DNA of 64,000 nucleotides, from assembly GCA_041441355.1 (NCBI GenBank), contig JASDTF010000016.1:56899-120898 (forward strand). Direction: 5' to 3'. Positions 29,866 through 40,837 of the stretch are shown in pieces. The DNA is from Propionivibrio sp. (GTDB lineage Bacteria > Pseudomonadota > Gammaproteobacteria > Burkholderiales > Rhodocyclaceae). The notes under the pieces are model-generated. The model did no database searches. It was not told the origin of the DNA and was given only the letters and a program-made list of their open reading frames with translations. The translations under genes and the position numbers were made by a program. How positions within the stretch are numbered: the stretch's first letter is position 1; each line of letters starts with the position of its first letter.

Positions 29866-31341
29866 TTAAAGGTAACCGAGCACCTGCCACCAGACGGCGC
29901 CGACGACGACCATGATCAGGATGTTGATCACGCTCATCACGAAGCCGGCGAACCACCACTCGTTGAGCGTCGTGTAGCCCGAGCCGAAGATGATCGGCGC
30001 AGTGCCCGTCGCGTAGTGGGTCAGCGACATGTTGAGCGAGGACGAGAACGAGAGCAGCAGCCCGAGCAGCAGGGGCGGCGCGCCGAGCGCGACGCCGGCG
30101 GCGAAGAAGGCGGCGAACATCGCGGTGACGTGTGCCGTGGTGCTGGCGAAGAAGTAGTGGGCGTAGAAGTAGACCAGCACCAGCAGCGCCGTCGACGCCA
30201 TCCAGCCAAAGCCCATGCCGCTGATCCCGAGCTCCATGCTCTTCGAGAACCAGCCGATGACCCCGAGCTTGCCGAGGAAGGTTGCCATCATCACCAGCGC
30301 CGCGAACCACATCAGCGTGTCCCAGGCGCTCTTGGCCTTGAGGATGTCCTCCCATTCGAGCACGCCGGTCAGCAGCAGGATGGCCAGGCCGAGGATGGCG
30401 GTGGTCGTCGGATTGACGGCATAGGCCTTGCCGAGCAGCCACTCGGGCACGCCGGCCCACAGGCAGAGCATGCCCAGCAGCACGCCGATGGTGATCTTCT
30501 CGGTCAGCTTCATCGGCCCGAGCTTGCCGAGCTCGGCCTCGGCCATCTCGCGCGCGGCCGGCGTTTCCTTGATCTCGGGCGGGTAGAGGTAGTAGAGGAT
30601 GAGCGGCATGAGCAGCAGCATCACCGCGCAGGGCAGCAGCGCGGCGAGCGCCCACTGGCCCCAGGTGATCTGGATGTTCAGGTTGGTCGCCTTGGCGATC
30701 AGTTCGACGCACAGCGGGTTGGGCGCGGTGGCGGTGATGAACATCGTCGAGGTGATCGGGTTGGCCTGGTAGTTCACCAGCGCCAGATAACGCCCGATGC
30801 GGCCCTGGGTGCCTTTCTCCGGCGCGGAACCGAAGCTGTCGGCGACCGAGCGCATGATCGGGTGGATGATGCCGCCGCCGCGCGCGGTGTTGCTCGGCGT
30901 CACCGGGGCGATGACCAGCTCGGCGGCGACCAGGCCGTAGGCGACCCCCAGCGTGCGTTTACCGAAGAGCTTGATGAAGTAGTAGCCGATGCGGGTGCCG
31001 AGGCCGGTCTTGTTGAGCGAGAGCGAGACCAGGACGGCGATGACGATCAGCCAGATCAGGGAATTGGAAAAGCCGCTCAGCGCGTCATTGAGCGCGTTGG
31101 CCGATTTGCCCGGGCTGGTGACGCCGGTGATGGCGACCAGGGCGATGGCGACGACTGAGATCGAACCGATCGGCATCGCCTTGCCGATGATCGCGGCGAT
31201 GGTCCCGATGAACAGCGCCAGAAGTTGCCAGGCGTTGGGCTTGACGCCCTCGGGCACCGGGATGACGAACCAGATGAGCAGGGTCAGGCCGATCGCAATC
31301 GCGCTCGGCAGTGGTCTGGGCAGAACCAGATTGTGTTGCAT
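29866..31341 (-). CDS. DASS family anion transporter (CitT/TtdT/YbhI-like)
   Basis: AWQLLALF, TGLGTRI, PVTPSNTARGGGI, HYFFASTTAH, LTHYATGTAPI. Confidence 0.9.
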   Translation of the reverse strand: MQHNLVLPRPLPSAIAIGLTLLIWFVIPVPEGVKPNAWQLLALFIGTIAAIIGKAMPIGSISVVAIALVAITGVTSPGKSANALNDALSGFSNSLIWLIVIAVLVSLSLNKTGLGTRIGYYFIKLFGKRTLGVAYGLVAAELVIAPVTPSNTARGGGIIHPIMRSVADSFGSAPEKGTQGRIGRYLALVNYQANPITSTMFITATAPNPLCVELIAKATNLNIQITWGQWALAALLPCAVMLLLMPLILYYLYPPEIKETPAAREMAEAELGKLGPMKLTEKITIGVLLGMLCLWAGVPEWLLGKAYAVNPTTTAILGLAILLLTGVLEWEDILKAKSAWDTLMWFAALVMMATFLGKLGVIGWFSKSMELGISGMGFGWMASTALLVLVYFYAHYFFASTTAHVTAMFAAFFAAGVALGAPPLLLGLLLSFSSSLNMSLTHYATGTAPIIFGSGYTTLNEWWFAGFVMSVINILIMVVVGAVWWQVLGYL

Positions 31342-31679
31342 GAACTCCCTCCAAAAGCGTTGGTACTCCAAATGGAAAAACTGAGCGTGTCGTTCTTTTT
31401 TGGCGTGCAGCTTGAGGAACGTTTCGGCGCTGGTTCAGGCCGGTGCCGGTGTTAACCGGCTCGGCGCAACCCGGGGCGCGTGGGCGCTTATTTTTATGTC
31501 ATGACGAGCGAGAGTGTTGCCGAAAAGCCTCGGCCTGACAATCAATTTCCGGTGTGCGGAGCGCGCGTTCTCAGGCCCTGTTGCGCGGCCTCGACGGGCC
31601 GTCGTGGCGGGCTTTGCGGCGTTTTTCGAAAGGCGGTGAAAAAGCGTTCGTGCCGACATGACGGACGTTTTTTTGCCGC

Positions 31680-31708
31680 TTGAAAAAACAAATTTGCTGC
31701 GTTAAATT
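31680..31708 (+). promoter_or_regulatory. Candidate sigma70 promoter of the octaheme cytochrome operon
   Basis: TTGAAA-17-TAAATT followed by an AT-rich tract up to the RBS. Confidence 0.5.
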
Positions 31709-31768
31709 ATTAGTACGTGCTTATACAATAACTTTCATATGCAGTAACGATCATTGCCGGGAGAGGCC

Positions 31769-33394
31769 ATGAGGCAAGGCGCGTTTCGAGGGGTGAAAGG
31801 GTGGTTGGGGGCCGCGTTCATGGCGGCGTTGCTGTGCGGAGCGTGGAACGTTCTCGCGGCGGACGCGCCCAGGCCGGTCAAGCTGAACACCACGGCCGAC
31901 CATTCCAAGTTCAAGGAACTGCAGCGTGAATTCGCTTCCGGGCCGGAGGTGACGCAGGCCTGCCTCTCCTGCCACACCGAGGCGGCCGGGCAGATCCACC
32001 GCACCAAGCACTGGACCTGGGAGTACAAGAACCCGCAGACCGGGCAGGTGTTGGGCAAGAAGCACGTGCTCAACAATTACTGCATCTCGGTCGAGACCAA
32101 CCTCGGCGCCTGCGCCAGCTGCCACGTCGGCTACGGCTGGAAGGACAACAACTTCGACTTCGCGTCGGAGAAGAACGTCGATTGCCTGGTCTGCCACGAC
32201 ACGACCGGCATCTACAAGAAGCCGGCCGGTTTTGCCGGCAATCCGGTGCTCAAGGACGTCGAAGTACCACCCGGTTCAGGCAACGTGATCAAGGGCATCG
32301 ACATCGCCAAGGTGGTGCAGAAGGTCGGCAAGACCAGCCGCGACACCTGCGGCGCCTGCCACTTCTTCGGCGGCGGCGGCGACGGCGTCAAGCACGGCGA
32401 CCTCGACAGCTCGATGGCGGCGCCCGACCGCGAGCTCGACGTGCACATGGACGCCACCGGCCTTGACTTCACCTGCGCCACCTGTCACAAGACCGCGAGC
32501 CATGATGTGGCTGGCAGCCGCTACACGCCGACGGCAGTGGATACCGGCGGCGCGCACCTGCGCGGCAAGGCCGACAACAGCAATCCGGCCACCTGCGTTT
32601 CGTGCCACGGCCAGGCGCCGCACAAGCGGACGGCGCTGCTCAACACGCACACCGACAAGCTGGCTTGCCAGACCTGCCACATCCCGGCCTTTGCGCGCGG
32701 CGGGGTGCCGACCAAGATGAGTTGGGACTGGTCGACCGCCGGCGAGCGCGACGCGGAGGGCAAGCAGGTCACGCGTAAGGATGCCAAGGGGCATGTGATC
32801 TACGAATCGCGCAAGGGCAGCTTCACGGTTGCCGAGAACGTCAAGCCGGAATACCTCTGGTTCAACGGGCAGGTGAACTACACCCTGGCCGAGGACAAGA
32901 TCGCCGATCCGGAGAAGATCGTGCAGGTCAATTCGATCGGCGGCAGCCCCGGCGACGGCAAGTCGCAGGTCTGGCCGTTCAAGGTCTTCCGCGGCTCCCA
33001 GCCTTACGACAAGGAGCACCGGACGTTGGTCAAGCCGCACGTGGCCGGCAACGACGACACCGCCTACTGGAAGAACCTGGTGTGGGACAAGGCCGTGGCC
33101 ACCGGCATGGCCTCGGCGGGGCTGCCGTTCTCGGGCCAGGTCGGCTTCGTTACGACCGAGATGTTCTGGCCGGTGACGCACATGGTGGCGCCGAAGGAAA
33201 AGTCCGTACGCTGCACCGAATGCCACAGCCGCGACGGACGGCTGGAGGGCGTGCCGGGCCTTTACATTCCCGGGCGCGACCGCAATGCGCTGGTCGATAC
33301 CCTGGGTTGGGCGCTGGCCGGGCTGGCGTTGGTCGGCTCCTTGGGCCATGGGCTGCTGCGCATCGTCGCTCGTCGCCGCGAAACCAAGGAATGA
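31769..33394 (+). CDS. otr: Octaheme c-type cytochrome, tetrathionate reductase (Otr) family, with C-terminal TM anchor
   Basis: Eight CxxCH (CLSCH, CASCH, CLVCH, CGACH, CATCH, CVSCH, CQTCH, CTECH); GKKHVLNNYC motif; signal peptide; hydrophobic C-terminus. Confidence 0.88.
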   Translation: MRQGAFRGVKGWLGAAFMAALLCGAWNVLAADAPRPVKLNTTADHSKFKELQREFASGPEVTQACLSCHTEAAGQIHRTKHWTWEYKNPQTGQVLGKKHVLNNYCISVETNLGACASCHVGYGWKDNNFDFASEKNVDCLVCHDTTGIYKKPAGFAGNPVLKDVEVPPGSGNVIKGIDIAKVVQKVGKTSRDTCGACHFFGGGGDGVKHGDLDSSMAAPDRELDVHMDATGLDFTCATCHKTASHDVAGSRYTPTAVDTGGAHLRGKADNSNPATCVSCHGQAPHKRTALLNTHTDKLACQTCHIPAFARGGVPTKMSWDWSTAGERDAEGKQVTRKDAKGHVIYESRKGSFTVAENVKPEYLWFNGQVNYTLAEDKIADPEKIVQVNSIGGSPGDGKSQVWPFKVFRGSQPYDKEHRTLVKPHVAGNDDTAYWKNLVWDKAVATGMASAGLPFSGQVGFVTTEMFWPVTHMVAPKEKSVRCTECHSRDGRLEGVPGLYIPGRDRNALVDTLGWALAGLALVGSLGHGLLRIVARRRETKE

Positions 33395-33405
33395 GGAGAA
33401 CGGAC

Positions 33406-33999
33406 ATGAGCGAGCGCATCTACATCTTCAAAGGCTTCGAGCGCTTCTGGCACTGGGCGCAGGCGGCGCTGATCATCACCCTGCTGCTCACCGGGTTCGA
33501 GATTCACGGCAGTTATAAGCTGTTCGGCTTCTACAAGGCGCTGGACACCCACACGACGGCGGCGTGGGCGCTGATCGGGCTGTGGGTCTTCGCCATTTTC
33601 TGGCACGTGACCACCGGCGAATGGCGGCACTACATCCCGACCACCGACAAACTGCTGGTCATCGCCCGCTATTACGCCTCCGGCATCTTCCGCGGCGAGC
33701 CGCACCCGTTCAAACCCAGCAGCCTGAACAAGCACAACCCGCTGCAGCGGCTGACCTACCTCGGCATCCTGGTGTGCGTGAGCCCGCTGTTGTGGATCAC
33801 CGGCTGGCTGCTCTACTTCTACGGCAGCTGGAAGGCCTGGGGGCTCGAAACGCTGTCGCTTGAAGCGGTGGCCGTGGCGCACACCGTAGGCGCCTTCCTG
33901 ATGCTGGCCTTCCTCATCTCGCACCTCTATCTTGTAACCACGGGGCGGACGCCGACGGCGCACCTGAAGGCCATGGTCACGGGCTGGGAGGAGCATTGA
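33406..33999 (+). CDS. Cytochrome b/b6 domain membrane subunit (PhsC/FdnI-like quinol-interacting)
   Basis: FERFWHWAQA, TM His residues, KHNPLQRLTY, AHTVGAF...SHLYL. Confidence 0.88.
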   Translation: MSERIYIFKGFERFWHWAQAALIITLLLTGFEIHGSYKLFGFYKALDTHTTAAWALIGLWVFAIFWHVTTGEWRHYIPTTDKLLVIARYYASGIFRGEPHPFKPSSLNKHNPLQRLTYLGILVCVSPLLWITGWLLYFYGSWKAWGLETLSLEAVAVAHTVGAFLMLAFLISHLYLVTTGRTPTAHLKAMVTGWEEH

Positions 34000-34063
34000 A
34001 ACCGCGACACTGAGGCGGCCTTGCCGCTGACGCACCGATCGTTTTTCAACAGGGAGAAGTGAC

Positions 34064-34456
34064 ATGGGGATCAAACAAGTGGTGGTCGGCGCGGTGGCGC
34101 TGGCTGCCCTCGGGGTCGCCGCCCAGGCTACCGCTTACGACGGCGACTGGAAGCGCGGTCGCATTTACTACCGCAGCGTGTGCACCTCGTGCCACGTCGC
34201 CTCGCCGGTCGGCGGAATCAACCCGAGTTCGAAGACCAAGGCTGAGTGGAACGCCTATCTGCAGGCCGACAAGCACGCCAAGGGCAAGGACGCGGTGAGC
34301 CACTACGTCAGCCAGGGCTATCGCAACAGCATCAAGGCGGCGAACAAGGCGGCCGAGAAATTCGCCGATGTGCCCGACAAGGAGCTGGCCGAGGACATCA
34401 AGGCCTTCCTGCTCAAGGGCGCCAAGGACGGCGACGCGCCGGCCAGCTGCAGCTGA
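34064..34456 (+). CDS. Periplasmic monoheme cytochrome c
   Basis: Signal peptide; single CTSCH; ends PASCS. Confidence 0.85.
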   Translation: MGIKQVVVGAVALAALGVAAQATAYDGDWKRGRIYYRSVCTSCHVASPVGGINPSSKTKAEWNAYLQADKHAKGKDAVSHYVSQGYRNSIKAANKAAEKFADVPDKELAEDIKAFLLKGAKDGDAPASCS

Positions 34457-34481
34457 ACGTCCATCCATTCAGGAGACGACC

Positions 34482-35636
34482 ATGAGCCTCAGGCAATCCG
34501 CGGTGCTGGCGCTGCTTGCCGCCAGCCTTCTTTCCTTTGCGCCGGCCCCGGTGCAGGCCGCCGACCCGTCCGCCGCGACTGCGCTTCAGCCGCGCGAGGG
34601 GTGGTACAAGCAGCTCGTCGATTTCGATTTCATGCGCGCCAACGTTGACATCCCACCCAAGCCGGGGGTGCTGATCGTCGATTCGCGGCCGGCGGCGCGG
34701 CAGTACGATCCGGGCCACATTCCCGGGGCGATCAACATTCCCGATACCCAGTTCGACAAGCAGGTCGCCCGCCTTCCGGCCGACAAGAACTCGCTGCTCG
34801 TCTTCTACTGCGGCGGCGTCGATTGCCCGCTCAGCCACAACTCGGCGTTCAAGGCCGAGCAGCTCGGCTACACCAACATCAAGGTCTATCCGCAAGGGAT
34901 GCCCGACTGGGCGGCGCGCGGCGGCCAGGTGGCGGTGTCGGCGGCGTTCATCAAGAAGCTGATCGACGAGAAGGGCGCCTATGCCCTGATCGACGCGCGC
35001 CCGAAGCGGGTGGCCGAGAAAGGCATGATCCCGACCGCGATCAACATTTCCGACACCGAGTTCGACAAGCAGACCGACAAGCTGCCGACCGACAAGGCGA
35101 CGCCGCTGATCTACTACTGTGGTGGTTTGGAATGCGTGCTTTCCGACAAATCGGCGGCCAAGGCCAAGGCGCTCGGGTACAGCAACGTCCTGACCTACCC
35201 CGAGGGCTATCCGGAATGGGAAAAGCTGCACGGCGCAGCGCCGGCGGTGGTCGCATCTGCAGGCAGTGCGCCGGCACCCGCAGTGGCGAGCCCGAGCCTG
35301 ATCGCGGGCAAGGAAAAAGGGTCGGTGACCGTGGCCTCGTTCGAGCAGGTCTGGAAAACGGCGCCGGCGAACCTCGTCCTCGTCGACGTCCGCGACGCCA
35401 AGGAGTACGCCGCGGGGACGATCAAGGGCGCGCAAAATCTGCCGATCAATGACCTCGAAAAACAGGTCGGCACGCTGCCGACGAACAAGCCGGTGGTCTT
35501 CTTCTGCAGCACCGGCGCCCGCGCCGGCGAAGCCTACGACACCGTCAAGCTGCTGCGCGGCGAGGTTCAGGCTTACTTCCTCGATGCCGGCATCAAGTTT
35601 TCTGGCGACGGCGCTTACACGATGACGCAAAAGTAA
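34482..35636 (+). CDS. Secreted triple-domain rhodanese/sulfurtransferase
   Basis: Signal peptide; three repeats (VDSRP..GHIPGAINI; IDARP..GMIPTAINI; VDVRD..GTIKGAQNL) with loops YCGGVDC, YCGGLEC, FCSTGAR. Confidence 0.88.
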   Translation: MSLRQSAVLALLAASLLSFAPAPVQAADPSAATALQPREGWYKQLVDFDFMRANVDIPPKPGVLIVDSRPAARQYDPGHIPGAINIPDTQFDKQVARLPADKNSLLVFYCGGVDCPLSHNSAFKAEQLGYTNIKVYPQGMPDWAARGGQVAVSAAFIKKLIDEKGAYALIDARPKRVAEKGMIPTAINISDTEFDKQTDKLPTDKATPLIYYCGGLECVLSDKSAAKAKALGYSNVLTYPEGYPEWEKLHGAAPAVVASAGSAPAPAVASPSLIAGKEKGSVTVASFEQVWKTAPANLVLVDVRDAKEYAAGTIKGAQNLPINDLEKQVGTLPTNKPVVFFCSTGARAGEAYDTVKLLRGEVQAYFLDAGIKFSGDGAYTMTQK

Positions 35637-35653
35637 GCGCCGTCATTCCCCTC

Positions 35654-35682
35654 AAACGGTCGCGCGTGCGGCCGTTTTTTTT
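35654..35682 (+). terminator. Intrinsic terminator of the otr operon
   Basis: aaacggtcgc-gcgt-gcggccgttt followed by a T-run. Confidence 0.75.
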
Positions 35683-35857
35683 ATAGTTCGAGGTGGGCCC
35701 GGGCGCGCGCGAGCAGTTCCTTGCAGCAGCGACAGGTGACGCAGGGGATGAGCAGCGGCAGGCAACCGATCAATCCGGCGAGCAGCACGGGCGCCAGGGT
35801 GATGGCGCGCAGCAGGCGTTCAGCACGGGACAGACGCAAGGTGCGGTTCATGATCAT
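35681..35857 (-). CDS. 58-aa Cys-rich membrane peptide, weakly DUF2892/YgaP-TM-like
   Basis: AGGAG RBS; ERLLR...LLAGLIGCLPL...CVTCRCC; lies directly downstream of a sigma54-like promoter. Confidence 0.6.
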   Translation of the reverse strand: MIMNRTLRLSRAERLLRAITLAPVLLAGLIGCLPLLIPCVTCRCCKELLARARAHLEL

Positions 35858-35891
35858 GATGCTCTCCTGTCGGCAGGGATGGTGTACCACG

Positions 35892-35907
35892 ATCAATTTG
35901 CGTGCCA
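35892..35907 (-). promoter_or_regulatory. Sigma54 -24/-12 promoter (variant -12)
   Basis: Minus strand TGGCACGCAAATTGAT vs consensus TGGCAC-N5-TTGC. Confidence 0.65.
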
Positions 35908-35972
35908 TGTGCCGCCAGCCCTTGCAGGGTGGGCAACACGGCTGAAGGCGGGCGTTGGTGGCTGGCGCTGTG

Positions 35973-36031
35973 CTGTCAAAACCGGCAGAAAATCGCACGT
36001 GTGCGGGCTATAGTGCTGTCAGAGATGTCAG
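35973..36031. promoter_or_regulatory. Two candidate enhancer (UAS) sites for the sigma54 activator
   Basis: CTGTC-N6-GGCAG (35973-35988) and CTGTC-N6-GTCAG (36016-36031), both preceded by GTG, 43 bp apart; the second abuts a TATAGT -10 (36009-36014) of the activator gene. Confidence 0.55.
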
Positions 36032-36043
36032 CGCGAGGCCGCC

Positions 36044-37405
36044 ATGGACTATCCTGCAGCATCGCTTTCCGAACTGGTGTCCTTCCTCGACAGCCAGGAC
36101 GAGCCGAGCATCGTGATGGATGCGGACTACCGCATCCTTGCCGCAAATCGGGCGTATACCGCGGCGTTCGGGCGGATGGGGGCGGTGACCGGGCGCCACT
36201 GCTACGAAGTCTCGCACCGCTTTGCCGCGCCCTGCGACCAGGCCGGCGAGCCTTGCCCCCTGAACATGAGTCGGCAGAGCGGCCAGGCGCAGCGTGTGCT
36301 GCACCTGCACCACACGCCCACGGGCGAAGAACACGTCGATGTGCAGACGACGCCGATCCGCGATCGGCACGGGCGTCTCGCGTATTTCGTCGAGACGATG
36401 CACGTCGTCCGCCAGGCGTCGAGCCGGCCCGCGGCCGAGGGGCTGGTCGGGCGCTCGCCCCGCTTCCAGAGCATGCTGGCCCTGGCGCTGCGCGTGGCCC
36501 CGACCTCGGCCAACGTGTTGCTGCGCGGCGAAACCGGCACTGGCAAAGAACTGCTGGCGCGGCTGATCCACGAGGCCGGGCGGGCGGCGCGTGGCCCCTT
36601 CGTGGTCGTCGACTGCTCGGGGCTGAGCGAAACCCTGTTCGAGAGCGAGTTGTTCGGCTACGAGAAAGGCGCGTTCACCGGCGCCCAGCACCGCAAGACC
36701 GGCCTCGTCGAGGCGGCCAACGGCGGCACGCTCTTCCTCGACGAAGTCGGCGACATCCCCGGTAGCCTGCAGGTCAAGCTGCTGCGCCTGCTGGAGAACG
36801 GCACCTTCCGCCGGGTCGGCGGCGTTGAGGTGCTGCGCAGCACCTTCCGCCTGATCTGCGCCACTCACCGCGACCTTGAAGGCATGGTCGGTGCCGAGCG
36901 TTTCCGGCGCGACCTCTACCACCGCATCAACACCTTCCCGATCCTCGTGCCGGCGTTGGCCGAGCGCGGCGAGGACATCCCCCTGCTGGCCGCCTCCTTC
37001 CTCAAGCGGGTGGCCGGCGAACGCAGCCTGCGCCTGTCGCCCGACGCCGTGGCGGCGCTGCAGGCGCGGCCCTGGTCGGGCAACATCCGCGAACTGCGCA
37101 ACCTGATCGAGCGCGCCACCGTCCTGGCCGACGGCGACACCCTTGAAGCCGCGCATTTCGACATGGACGCGGTGACGGGCGCAAGGTCACCCGAAGCGAG
37201 GCCGACGACGAGCGAATTTCATGTCGGCGAGATGCTGCCGCTGGCCGAAGTCGAACGCCGTTACCTCGCCTGGGCGATGGCACAGCCGGGCGGGCGCGAG
37301 GCGCTGGCCCGATGCCTGGGGCTGGGCGAGCGCACCTTGTACCGCAAGCTGGCCGCGTTGAAGGCCGGAGGCTTGGGCGGGGCGAGCGCCGCCGGACAGG
37401 GCTGA
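36044..37405 (+). CDS. fisR: Sigma54-dependent activator (PAS-AAA+-Fis HTH), FisR-like polysulfide sensor
   Basis: [40 protein letters not shown]; Cys at residues 53, 64 and 71, the positions I recall for Cupriavidus FisR. Confidence 0.85.
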
Positions 37406-37535
37406 CGCGCACGGGCGCGGAACTCTTGCCGGTTCTCGCACACTAACAAACATTAGAGATTTATAATATTCTTGTTTTAACCCCGGGGTGCTGCCGCGGA
37501 CTGACGCCGCCCGCCCCATGTTCTGGAGATTCCCG

Positions 37536-37967
37536 GTGCTGATCGACTGGACCCATTTCACCCCCGGCGCCGCCTTGCTCGGCGGCGTCCTGATCGGCCT
37601 CGCGGCTGCGGCGTTGATCCTCGTCAACGGGCGCATCGCCGGCATCAGCGGCATCGTCGGCGGGCTTTTCCGGCCGCAGCGCGGCGAGGTCGGCTGGCGG
37701 CTGGCCTTCGTCGGCGGCTTGCTCGCGGCGCCGTTGCTGTATGGCCTGTGGGCGCCGCTGCCCGCGGCGCGCATTGAAGCTGGGCCTTTGCTCATCGTCC
37801 TGGCCGGCTTGCTGGTCGGCGTTGGCACCCGTTACGGCGCCGGTTGTACCAGCGGGCACGGGGTGTGCGGCCTGTCGCGCCTGTCGCCGCGCTCGCTGGT
37901 GGCGACGCTGGTGTTCATGGTGGCGGGCTTTGCCACCGTTTTCTTTGTCCGCCATCTGTTCGCCTGA
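37536..37967 (+). CDS. YeeE/YedE family sulfur transporter subunit (PmpA/B-like)
   Basis: [34 protein letters not shown]; GTG start after GGAGA. Confidence 0.88.
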
Positions 37968-37974
37968 GGTGTGC

Positions 37975-38406
37975 ATGAACATCCGTTTGAATACCTTTTT
38001 CGCTTTTCTCGTCGGCCTGCTGTTCGGCCTGGGCTTGATCGTCTCGGGCATGAGCGACCCCGCCAAGGTGCTCGGTTTCCTCGACCTGGCCGGCGCCTGG
38101 GACCCGTCACTGGCGCTGGTCATGGGCGGGGCGATCGGGGTTGGCTTCGTTGCCTTCACCCTGGCCGGGCGGCGCCAACGCTCGCTGCTCGGCTTGCCGA
38201 TGCAATTGCCGACGGCGCGCCAGATCGACCGCCGACTGGTGCTCGGCAGCCTCGTGTTCGGCGTCGGCTGGGGGCTGGCCGGGATCTGCCCTGGGCCGGC
38301 GCTGGTGTTGTTCGGCGCCGGAGCGCCCGAAGGCGCGTTGTTTGTCGCCGCGATGCTGGTCGGCATGGGCGCGTTCGAAATCCTCGAGCGGCGCCGGGTG
38401 CACTAA
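37975..38406 (+). CDS. YeeE/YedE family sulfur transporter subunit (PmpA/B-like)
   Basis: [38 protein letters not shown]. Confidence 0.88.
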
Positions 38407-38436
38407 GATCAAGCGTAAGCGAACAGGGAGAACGCG

Positions 38437-39318
38437 ATGAACGTACAGACTCCTCAGGTTGAAGGCTTCTACGATCCCGCAACGTCGACGCTCAGCTACC
38501 TGCTGCTCGACCGCGCCAGCGGCGCGGCGGCGCTGATCGACAGCGTCCTCGACTACGATCCGAAGTCCGGGCGCACCCGCACCACCTCGGCCGACCGCCT
38601 GCTGGCGCGCGTCGCCGAACTCGGGGCGCGGGTCGAATGGATTTTGGAAACGCACGTGCATGCCGATCACCTCTCGGCGGCGGCTTACCTTAAAGAGAAG
38701 CTCGGAGCGAAGGTGGCCATCGGCGAGCGCATCGGTGCGGTGCAGCAGGTGTTCAGGCAGCTGTTCAACGCCGAGCCGGAATTCGCCACTGACGGCCGCC
38801 AGTTCGACCGCCTGCTCGCTGATGGCGAAACGCTGAGCCTGGGCAGCCTTGAAATCGAAGCCTGGCAGACGCCCGGGCACACCCCGGCCTGCCTGACGTA
38901 TGTGGTGCGCGGTGGTGGCGAAACGCAGGCCTTCGTCGGCGACACGCTGTTCATGCCCGACTATGGCACGGCGCGCTGCGACTTCCCGGGCGGCGACGCG
39001 GCGACGCTCTACCGCTCGATCCGGCGCATCCTCAGCCTGCCCGAGGCGACGACGCTCTATATGTGCCACGACTACCGGCCGTCCGGGCGTGACGTCGCTT
39101 ACGTGAGCACGGTCGGCGCGCAGCGCGCGGCCAACGTGCACATCCACGACGGGGTGGATGAAGCCGCGTTCGTGGCAATGCGCCAGGCGCGCGATGCGCA
39201 GCTCGAAGCGCCGGTGCTGCTCCTGCCCTCGGTGCAGGTGAACATGCGCGGCGGCGAGCTGCCGCCGGCGGAAGCCAACGGCACGCGCTACCTGAAGATT
39301 CCGCTCAACGCGCTTTGA
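38437..39318 (+). CDS. pdo: Persulfide dioxygenase (MBL fold, Blh/PDO type)
   Basis: SVLDYDPKSG, ETHVHADHLSA, TPGHTPAC, GDTLFMPDYGTARCDFPGG, CHDY, YLKIPLN. Confidence 0.88.
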   Translation: MNVQTPQVEGFYDPATSTLSYLLLDRASGAAALIDSVLDYDPKSGRTRTTSADRLLARVAELGARVEWILETHVHADHLSAAAYLKEKLGAKVAIGERIGAVQQVFRQLFNAEPEFATDGRQFDRLLADGETLSLGSLEIEAWQTPGHTPACLTYVVRGGGETQAFVGDTLFMPDYGTARCDFPGGDAATLYRSIRRILSLPEATTLYMCHDYRPSGRDVAYVSTVGAQRAANVHIHDGVDEAAFVAMRQARDAQLEAPVLLLPSVQVNMRGGELPPAEANGTRYLKIPLNAL

Positions 39319-39349
39319 TTCCGCCGCCCATGCCGCGGCGGCGAGAGTT

Positions 39350-40837
<1,488 letters not shown>

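Follow-up and report, generated by a model that had tools for sequence, protein, structure and literature searches.

The subject of this study is a sigma54 activator of the FisR family that is divergent from a gene for a small, cysteine-rich membrane peptide in a genome of Propionivibrio sp. (NCBI GenBank assembly GCA_041441355.1; 3.2 Mb, 43 contigs, 65% G+C, 94% complete). Both genes lie within a 64,000-nucleotide stretch of contig JASDTF010000016.1 (contig C16, positions 56899–120898), which is referred to below as the window. The activator (453 aa; identified by domains and homology) is encoded on the plus strand at 36044–37405, the single-helix peptide (58 aa, MIMNRTLRLSRAERLLRAITLAPVLLAGLIGCLPLLIPCVTCRCCKELLARARAHLEL; identified from the list of open reading frames, ORFs, and from its homologs) on the minus strand at 35681–35857, and the 186-bp control region between them (35858–36043) carries a sigma54-type promoter box facing the peptide gene and two 16-bp palindromes. 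By the promoter and palindrome searches employed, the peptide gene appears as the only visible target of FisR in the genome, and the regulatory logic leading from FisR through sigma54 to the peptide is well supported by sequence comparison. The anatomy of the locus, the family membership of the activator, the conservation of the unit, the selection on the small ORF and the uniqueness of the sites in the genome were read directly from the sequences. The explanation as a whole, i.e. a self-contained unit of FisR sensor and peptide output with the peptide serving as a membrane thiol cluster for sulfane sulfur, is regarded as moderately probable.

Assignment of the activator to the FisR family

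The domain order of the FisR family, namely a PAS-like sensor, an AAA+ domain and a Fis-type helix-turn-helix, was found in the activator (PAS_4 at residues 15–124, Sigma54_activat at 134–300, AAA_lid_14 at 307–382 and HTH_8 at 400–438). An earlier note on this DNA, made from the letters alone, had called the activator FisR-like and placed its cysteines at exactly 53, 64 and 71; counting in the translation gave C53, C64 and C71, and the likeness was borne out by the domain order, the cysteine signature and a full-length identity of 53% to a homolog on the megaplasmid of Cupriavidus metallidurans CH34 (50% over the sensor domain, tblastn against plasmid records). The CH34 homolog also possesses C53, C64 and C71, and its gene is divergent from an MBL-fold persulfide dioxygenase gene (pdo), which is followed by a 430-aa flavoprotein of SQR size and then by a transporter. 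The signature CYxVSH..PCDQxGExCP was kept in all 20 aligned homologs, including those encoded beside pdo. By these sequence traits the activator belongs to the FisR family of sulfane-sulfur-sensing sigma54 activators. For FisR of C. pinatubonensis JMP134 (Li et al., 2017, Mol Microbiol 105:373, a study cited in PMC9495516 and PMC7315123), sulfane sulfur is stated to react with the protein to give a tetrasulfide between Cys53 and Cys64 (PMC9495516) and, by analogy, the window FisR would sense polysulfide.

The similarity to the Cupriavidus systems (JMP134 and the CH34 homolog) includes the three-domain sigma54 activator with Cys53/Cys64/Cys71, a divergent sigma54 promoter of the form TGGCACG-N4-TTGA and, in CH34, CTGCCA/TGGCAG-type half-sites upstream of it. 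The difference lies in the output: the Cupriavidus promoter leads into pdo-sqr, while the window promoter leads only into the 58-aa peptide gene, and the window pdo is located 3' of fisR behind yeeE/yedE and has no sigma54 box. The activation of pdo/sqr from a divergent sigma54 promoter, by which FisR is defined, was thus not found at the window locus, where the 58-aa ORF is followed by a terminator.

The peptide and its gene

The tiny ORF with a ribosome-binding site, one hydrophobic helix and CVTCRCC, pointed out in the earlier note, was confirmed at 35681–35857 (minus strand), with the Shine-Dalgarno sequence GGAGAG (35862–35867) placed 4 nt 5' of the ATG; a second in-frame ATG would give 56 aa. 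Its stop codon indeed abuts the terminator of the convergent otr operon, a hairpin (35654–35677) which closes the rhodanese gene and is common to both genes, with a T-tract on the plus side only. The conserved core of the peptide reads LAPVLLAxLIGxxPLLIPC[VI]xCRCCK and both tails are variable. Over eight loci, pN/pS was 0.31 in the core vs 0.70 and 0.85 in the tails, and within the core third codon positions varied in 22 of the 26 codons, second positions in 7. This variation supports a core evolving as protein, and a real, conserved gene under purifying selection.

Five other genomes of the genus yielded intact homologs in six-frame searches, and four more were added subsequently, so the ORF is conserved in relatives. 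A word-based search of 5.8 billion proteins returned ten homologs, none of them named, and when 1.84 billion representatives were searched exhaustively with a profile, seven clusters (50% identity) belonged to the family and two further weak matches were long unrelated proteins, with no annotated distant relative among the results. Nine peptide loci were obtained in a scan of 185,579 species genomes, most of them in metagenome-assembled genomes (MAGs) of Propionivibrio, Candidatus Accumulibacter or Rhodocyclaceae and two under other, probably mislabelled, MAG names. Judged by these searches, the family is real but tiny. Eight family members had no match to any Pfam or NCBIfam model even at E ≤ 10, DUF2892 included, and the weak DUF2892/YgaP likeness once seen in the peptide was not reproduced. 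The peptide and DUF2892 have in common a small size, a place in the membrane and a setting related to sulfur; however, DUF2892 forms a two-helix hairpin, while the peptide has one hydrophobic segment and no detectable sequence relationship to it.

The ORF might also be incidental, the true product being a sigma54-dependent small RNA or a leader peptide acting in attenuation through its cysteine codons. Four Cys codons within seven do recall leader peptides, a 3' untranslated region (UTR) hairpin after the ORF is common to three relatives, and in genome G117 a FisR-type promoter has only a 13-codon ORF behind it. We nevertheless give this explanation very little credence: the core varies in a protein-coding manner (pN/pS as above), the Shine-Dalgarno site and the reading frame are kept in all orthologous loci whose ORF was inspected, no gene follows downstream on the same strand except in locus L043, and no Rfam match was found across positions 31000–39500. 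The conserved part, moreover, is a hydrophobic helix, needless for a leader peptide. On this last ground the leader-peptide reading was rejected together with an antisense one, the transcript in relatives, where the peptide gene has its own terminator ahead of the convergent gene, being predicted to stop at that terminator.

In three relatives a conserved stretch of about 100 nt was observed as a 3' UTR after the peptide gene (L029, 8160–8250; L030, 9315–9400; L032, 9410–9500), consisting of a GC hairpin (GACGCGCGGACGAATCACTTCGCACCGCGC) and a terminator with a conserved loop (CCCCATCTC). This segment is absent from the window.

The control region

The promoter box (TGGCACGCAAATTGA, 35893–35907, minus strand; 35892–35907 in the form TGGCACGCAAATTGAT) was found by pattern search exactly as the earlier note had it, and is the sole match to TGGCAC-N5-TTGA in the window. 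It has a consensus -24 element and the correct spacing, but its -12 element is TTGA; transcription is predicted to start near 35881, and rpoN is present in the genome. The two CTGTC-N6-GNCAG palindromes, 43 bp apart, were likewise recovered: the proximal one (CTGTCAAAACCGGCAG, 35973–35988; pattern search and alignment) is a candidate upstream activator site, and the distal one (CTGTCAGAGATGTCAG, 36016–36031) lies 13 nt 5' of the fisR ATG. Their distance, previously given as about 90–150 bp upstream, required correction, the centres being located about 75 and 118 bp 5' of the -24 GG, i.e. about 120–170 bp before the ATG of the peptide gene.

The comparison of orthologous loci showed that the positions and orientations of fisR, the two palindromes, the sigma54 box and the peptide gene were kept in all of those examined. 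In an alignment of the intergenic region from 11 loci the invariant columns fell in the distal palindrome, a TATAGT/TATATT block, the proximal palindrome and the sigma54 box (GGCA.G....TTGA), and essentially nowhere else. The box, as [TG]GGCA[CT]G-N4-TTGA[TG], preceded the ATG by 34–40 nt in all eight tabulated loci and was present in further loci of the genus as well, in G350 with TGGTACG and TTGAA. The palindromes were spaced by 41 bp in those relatives where a stricter scan found both, compared to 43 bp in the window. An IHF-like ATCAG-N4-TTG separates the palindromes from the promoter in many relatives, and an AGGAG-type Shine-Dalgarno sequence occupies the equivalent place in most orthologous loci.

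The earlier view of the peptide gene as the single visible sigma54 target withstood a genome-wide scan for the upstream activator sites. The paired palindromes (core pattern) occurred once in the 3.2-Mb genome, in the fisR-peptide region, and the TTGA-type boxes numbered seven, with only two of them intergenic: the FisR-locus box and one in an unrelated AT-rich region without nearby palindromes. A palindrome pair together with an intergenic TTGA-type box was therefore found only at the fisR-peptide locus, and the peptide promoter is predicted to be sigma54-dependent. No conserved sigma54 box facing fisR was present in the relatives compared, and none was found before yeeE, hence before yeeE-yedE-pdo. 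A FisR-type promoter with one mismatch (TGGCGTGCAGCTTGAG, 31401–31416), situated 350 nt 5' of otr, was rejected as probably a chance match: it is absent in relatives and has no palindromes nearby.

A TATAGT hexamer (36009–36014, plus strand; TATATT in relatives), belonging to the conserved block AATATAGCA of the alignment, adjoins the distal palindrome and faces fisR. It resembles a sigma70 -10 element and, as the putative -10 of fisR, would be bracketed by both palindromes, which suggests autorepression.

Distribution of the unit and its gene neighborhood

The fisR-peptide unit was detected in 10 of the 54 genomes of the genus and in several metagenome contigs, all of the Propionivibrio/Accumulibacter type, its carriers being nearly all MAGs. 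All ten FisR orthologs of the genus with a sensor-domain identity of at least 69% were divergent from a peptide gene, and an eleventh genome with the pair (G351) has its fisR cut by a contig end. This distribution supports the inseparability of the peptide gene from its FisR orthogroup. Strict 1:1 co-inheritance, with the two genes divergent from one common control region, and the failure to find any other target of this promoter type in the genome would also be expected of a feedback partner of FisR, whose thiol cluster would bind the activated sensor or strip sulfane sulfur from it, with a logic like that of PspA acting on PspF. Such a partner has no precedent for FisR, and the regulator would then lack an effector in the physiology of the cell, unless the motif search missed other sites of FisR action; the idea is considered improbable.

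The convergent neighbor of the pair is an operon on the plus strand (31754–35636) encoding, according to gene and domain calls, Otr (31754–33394), a cytochrome b (33400–33999), a cytochrome c (34064–34456) and a triple rhodanese (34479–35636). An otr-cytochrome b-(cytochrome c)-rhodanese operon adjoins the pair in 12 of the 13 loci with enough flank, usually in convergent orientation. In L043 it is inverted, so that the peptide gene points at otr, with a terminator-like hairpin and a sigma70-like promoter between them, while in G010 the neighbors are trxC, an SLAC1-type channel, a CoA-disulfide reductase-rhodanese fusion and convergent cydAB, and otr is located on another contig. Among the genus genomes with the FisR-peptide pair, 11 of 11 contain otr, adjacent in 10, and about four genomes have otr without the pair. 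The association of the pair with sulfur respiration, as judged from gene content, is strong but not obligatory. As for the link to the Otr-cytochrome b complex proposed in the earlier note, its support is the strong conservation of the gene neighborhood, and modulation of the complex would be a candidate role.

The same gene content bears on a possible conditional role of the peptide in a respiratory complex of the membrane, of which it would be a small subunit or a modulator. The prime candidate is the Otr-cytochrome b quinol:sulfur-compound oxidoreductase, and the peptide would be made only upon a rise in cytoplasmic sulfane sulfur, in the manner of CydX or CydP with cytochrome bd. The constant presence of otr in genomes with the pair, its adjacency persisting despite the operon inversion in L043, and FisR paralogs in the order which drive operons starting with the single-helix CydP are all in favor of it. 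However, in no locus does the peptide gene clearly belong to the otr operon: it is convergent to it in all loci but one, where the hairpin and promoter intervene; G010 keeps the pair with otr on a different contig, G348 has otr and no FisR, and the peptide has no sequence similarity to CydP. A subunit role is therefore seen as rather unlikely.

On the other side, fisR is followed on the plus strand by genes for two half-size YeeE/YedE-type membrane proteins, a yeeE-like half (37518–37967) and a yedE/DUF6691-like half (37977–38406), then by pdo (38437–39318) and by the convergent cobQ (39350–40837, minus strand). The pdo product, a 293-aa MBL-fold protein identified by domain calls and homology, scored 378 bits against the dioxygenase part of the NCBIfam Blh model and is 70% identical to the FisR-linked PDO of C. 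metallidurans. The genome has one copy each of fisR, pdo, the yeeE/yedE pair and otr. This pdo, starting 1 kb 3' of fisR, had been overlooked when the peptide gene was considered an alternative relic of a lost pdo-sqr operon, and its presence disposes of that suggestion. The idea of a circuit rewired to a micro-protein fared better in one respect, the only recognisable sigma54 promoter driving the peptide ORF, but 'rewired' needs qualifying, since pdo is still in the locus, without a sigma54 box. Apart from the window, just two metagenome contigs have yeeE-yedE-pdo after fisR; in the remaining loci fisR is directly followed by cobQ or by different genes. A Cupriavidus-type sqr was not found in the 94%-complete genome (other SQR types were not searched), the sole weak match being a type II NADH dehydrogenase (C37:68819–70108). 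The genome consequently has a persulfide dioxygenase without a Cupriavidus-type SQR partner.

In Acinetobacter baumannii, FisR controls pdo1-sqr-tauE and BigR controls yeeE-yedE-pdo2 (PMC7315123). The window is similar in combining a FisR activator with yeeE-yedE-pdo in the gene order of the BigR operon, and its genome also encodes, ahead of a membrane rhodanese, an ArsR regulator of the YgaV/BigR-like kind. In contrast, FisR of A. baumannii has no sensor cysteines and its targets are enzymes (PMC7315123), while the window FisR has the cysteines and is predicted to activate a peptide gene.

A 16-bp AT-rich palindrome, ATTAG-N6-CTAAT, was observed upstream of both otr (ATTAGTACGTGCTTAT, 31709–31724) and yeeE (ATTAGAGATTTATAAT, 37452–37467). 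In its relaxed form the pattern has four sites in the whole genome, one other preceding an AhpD/CMD-family gene; the observation also takes in G000:C43:10263–10278 and about 16000–16035 in L033. Relatives carry the palindrome upstream of their otr operons, and in G010 a 34-bp perfect palindrome precedes trxC-SLAC1-CoADR/rhodanese-cydAB. The yeeE-yedE-pdo genes are arranged as in a BigR/SqrR-type operon, which an ArsR-family persulfide-sensing repressor controls, and their AT-rich palindrome overlaps a putative -10. An ArsR-family regulator with a Cys in the 'EACVQEI' helix and a C-terminal Cys, an arrangement which we take to be BigR/SqrR/YgaV-like, is encoded elsewhere in the genome (G000:C29:40304–41100) ahead of a gene for a membrane-anchored rhodanese, an order shared with E. 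coli ygaVP; the palindrome was not found upstream of this ArsR gene, so the regulator could not be tied to that operator. The site of SqrR, ATTC-N8-GAAT (PMC9774250), shares its geometry with ATTAG-N6-CTAAT. These sequence patterns suggest a second, non-sigma54 regulon joining otr with yeeE-yedE-pdo.

Proposed mechanism and possible role of the peptide

According to the mechanism proposed here, the binding sites of FisR would be the two 16-bp palindromes between fisR and the peptide gene (N-TG(Y)CA-N4-(Y)G(K)CA-N), whose spacing amounts to about four turns of the helix. Sulfane sulfur in the cytoplasm, as polysulfide or persulfide, would bridge the sensor cysteines, upon which FisR would remodel sigma54-RNA polymerase at TGGCACG-N4-TTGAT, giving a short monocistronic mRNA with a leader of about 24 nt. 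The predicted product is a 56–58-aa peptide with one hydrophobic helix and CxxCRCC at its cytoplasmic end. Since the binding sites lie on both sides of the TATAGT-like -10 and extend to 13 nt from the fisR ATG, autorepression by FisR is probable. Most orthologs of the peptide have an uncharged N-tail and a basic C-tail, and in these the positive-inside rule would put the Cys cluster on the cytoplasmic side. Most likely, the peptide would function in sulfane-sulfur handling as a membrane-anchored thiol cluster, which takes up, buffers or hands over sulfane sulfur on the inner side of the membrane, alongside Otr-cytochrome b-rhodanese and, in the window locus, YeeE/YedE-PDO. A more specific version, with the FisR-induced, membrane-embedded cluster capturing lipophilic sulfane sulfur (S8, polysulfanes) that is dissolved in the inner membrane and either handing it to cytoplasmic acceptors (such as the PDO pathway) or switching the Otr-cytochrome b complex of sulfur respiration, is put forward as a tentative possibility; the peptide would then represent an effector class not recognized before in reactive-sulfur homeostasis.

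Several points weigh against this interpretation. The -12 element is TTGA instead of the canonical TTGC, a deviation repeated in every ortholog and in the CH34 pdo promoter (TGGCACGGGTTTTGAG). In the window, the promoter pattern gave one match vs 0.28 expected (24 of 100 shuffles had at least one) and the palindrome pattern three matches vs 0.68 expected (three reached in 3 of 100 shuffles), both weakly above chance; it is because of their conservation across genomes that the motifs rise above it. The promoter does not always come with the peptide: L051 (G117:C3:131473–134868), a locus in a genome of the same bacterial family, has a FisR ortholog with 69% sensor identity, the palindromes and the box TGGCATGGTAATTGAT, followed only by the 13-codon ORF before a convergent gene, so that its output may have decayed or be RNA-only. 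The reference protein in the comparison is an unannotated CH34 homolog and not the JMP134 FisR studied by experiment. The AlphaFold2 model of the peptide, all-helical with three helical segments, is of low confidence (mean pLDDT 64), and in the sub-lineage of the window genome both tails are Arg-rich, which makes the topology ambiguous there. The cysteines may carry sulfur or metal, and contact of the peptide with Otr, YeeE or PDO would be a candidate feature only.

The choice of ligand concerns the proposal that CxxCxCC binds a thiophilic metal (Cu, Zn, Cd, Hg) or an Fe-S cluster and that the peptide buffers membrane metal during sulfide stress. Clusters of four to five cysteines located at the interface of a membrane are characteristic of peptides that handle metals. 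However, the conserved neighborhood has no metal resistance or transport genes and the regulator family senses sulfane sulfur, not metal, so that a metal role looks decidedly improbable, even with sulfide stress altering copper handling in A. baumannii (PMC7315123).

Target turnover in the FisR family and significance

Homologs of the sensor domain were found in 58 of 301 genomes of the order. Behind the divergent sigma54 promoter they have pdo in L076 and L077 (the scan found no box in L061 and L067, although there, too, pdo is divergent), a CydP-like single-helix protein in L054–L058, L063, L075, L079, L101 and a Pseudoalteromonas plasmid (L040, 4677–6311, where cydAB follows), or other genes, namely a response regulator (L053), a CcoG-like protein (L052) and a 217-aa MBL-fold protein (G008). 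CydP is a proposed subunit of cytochrome bd (PMC9104464). The FisR-paralog/cydP-cydAB units of Burkholderiales and Pseudoalteromonas resemble the window unit in layout, the gene of a FisR-family activator lying divergent to a sigma54 promoter that leads first into a gene for a single-helix membrane protein of 50–85 aa. In contrast to the peptide, CydP has no Cys cluster, and the two have neither sequence similarity nor a common motif; furthermore, cydAB follows cydP in the only locus whose downstream genes were seen, while the window peptide gene stands alone, with no cydAB on the same strand 3' of it, and was not counted as CydP. The FisR-paralog/cydP units in themselves suggest a sulfane-sulfur-responsive control of cytochrome bd, which was not found described in the literature searched. 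Judged by these comparisons, the peptide output is one branch of a family whose targets turn over. Because this turnover extends across the order, the peptide output is a variant of a known circuit rather than a new kind of circuit.

The outputs of the described FisR, CstR, SqrR and BigR circuits, in the literature searched, are enzymes or transporters, such as SQR, PDO, rhodanese, TauE and YeeE. Here, a FisR ortholog has as its only conserved, adjacent sigma54 target a gene for a 55–60-aa membrane peptide with a Cys cluster, and this newly found unit recurs in every orthologous locus examined, making the peptide a candidate new player in bacterial sulfur handling. The family also offers a clean case of regulator-target turnover, one sensor family being wired within a single order to pdo(-sqr), cydP, an MBL-fold gene or the peptide. 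The hosts are Propionivibrio/Accumulibacter-type bacteria of wastewater communities, where sulfide exposure matters in practice. If the peptide is functional, it would add a micro-protein effector to sulfane-sulfur biology, as the dedicated output of a sigma54 sensor that is not an enzyme, and would open a genetic way into the little-understood Otr-type octaheme systems encoded beside the pair.

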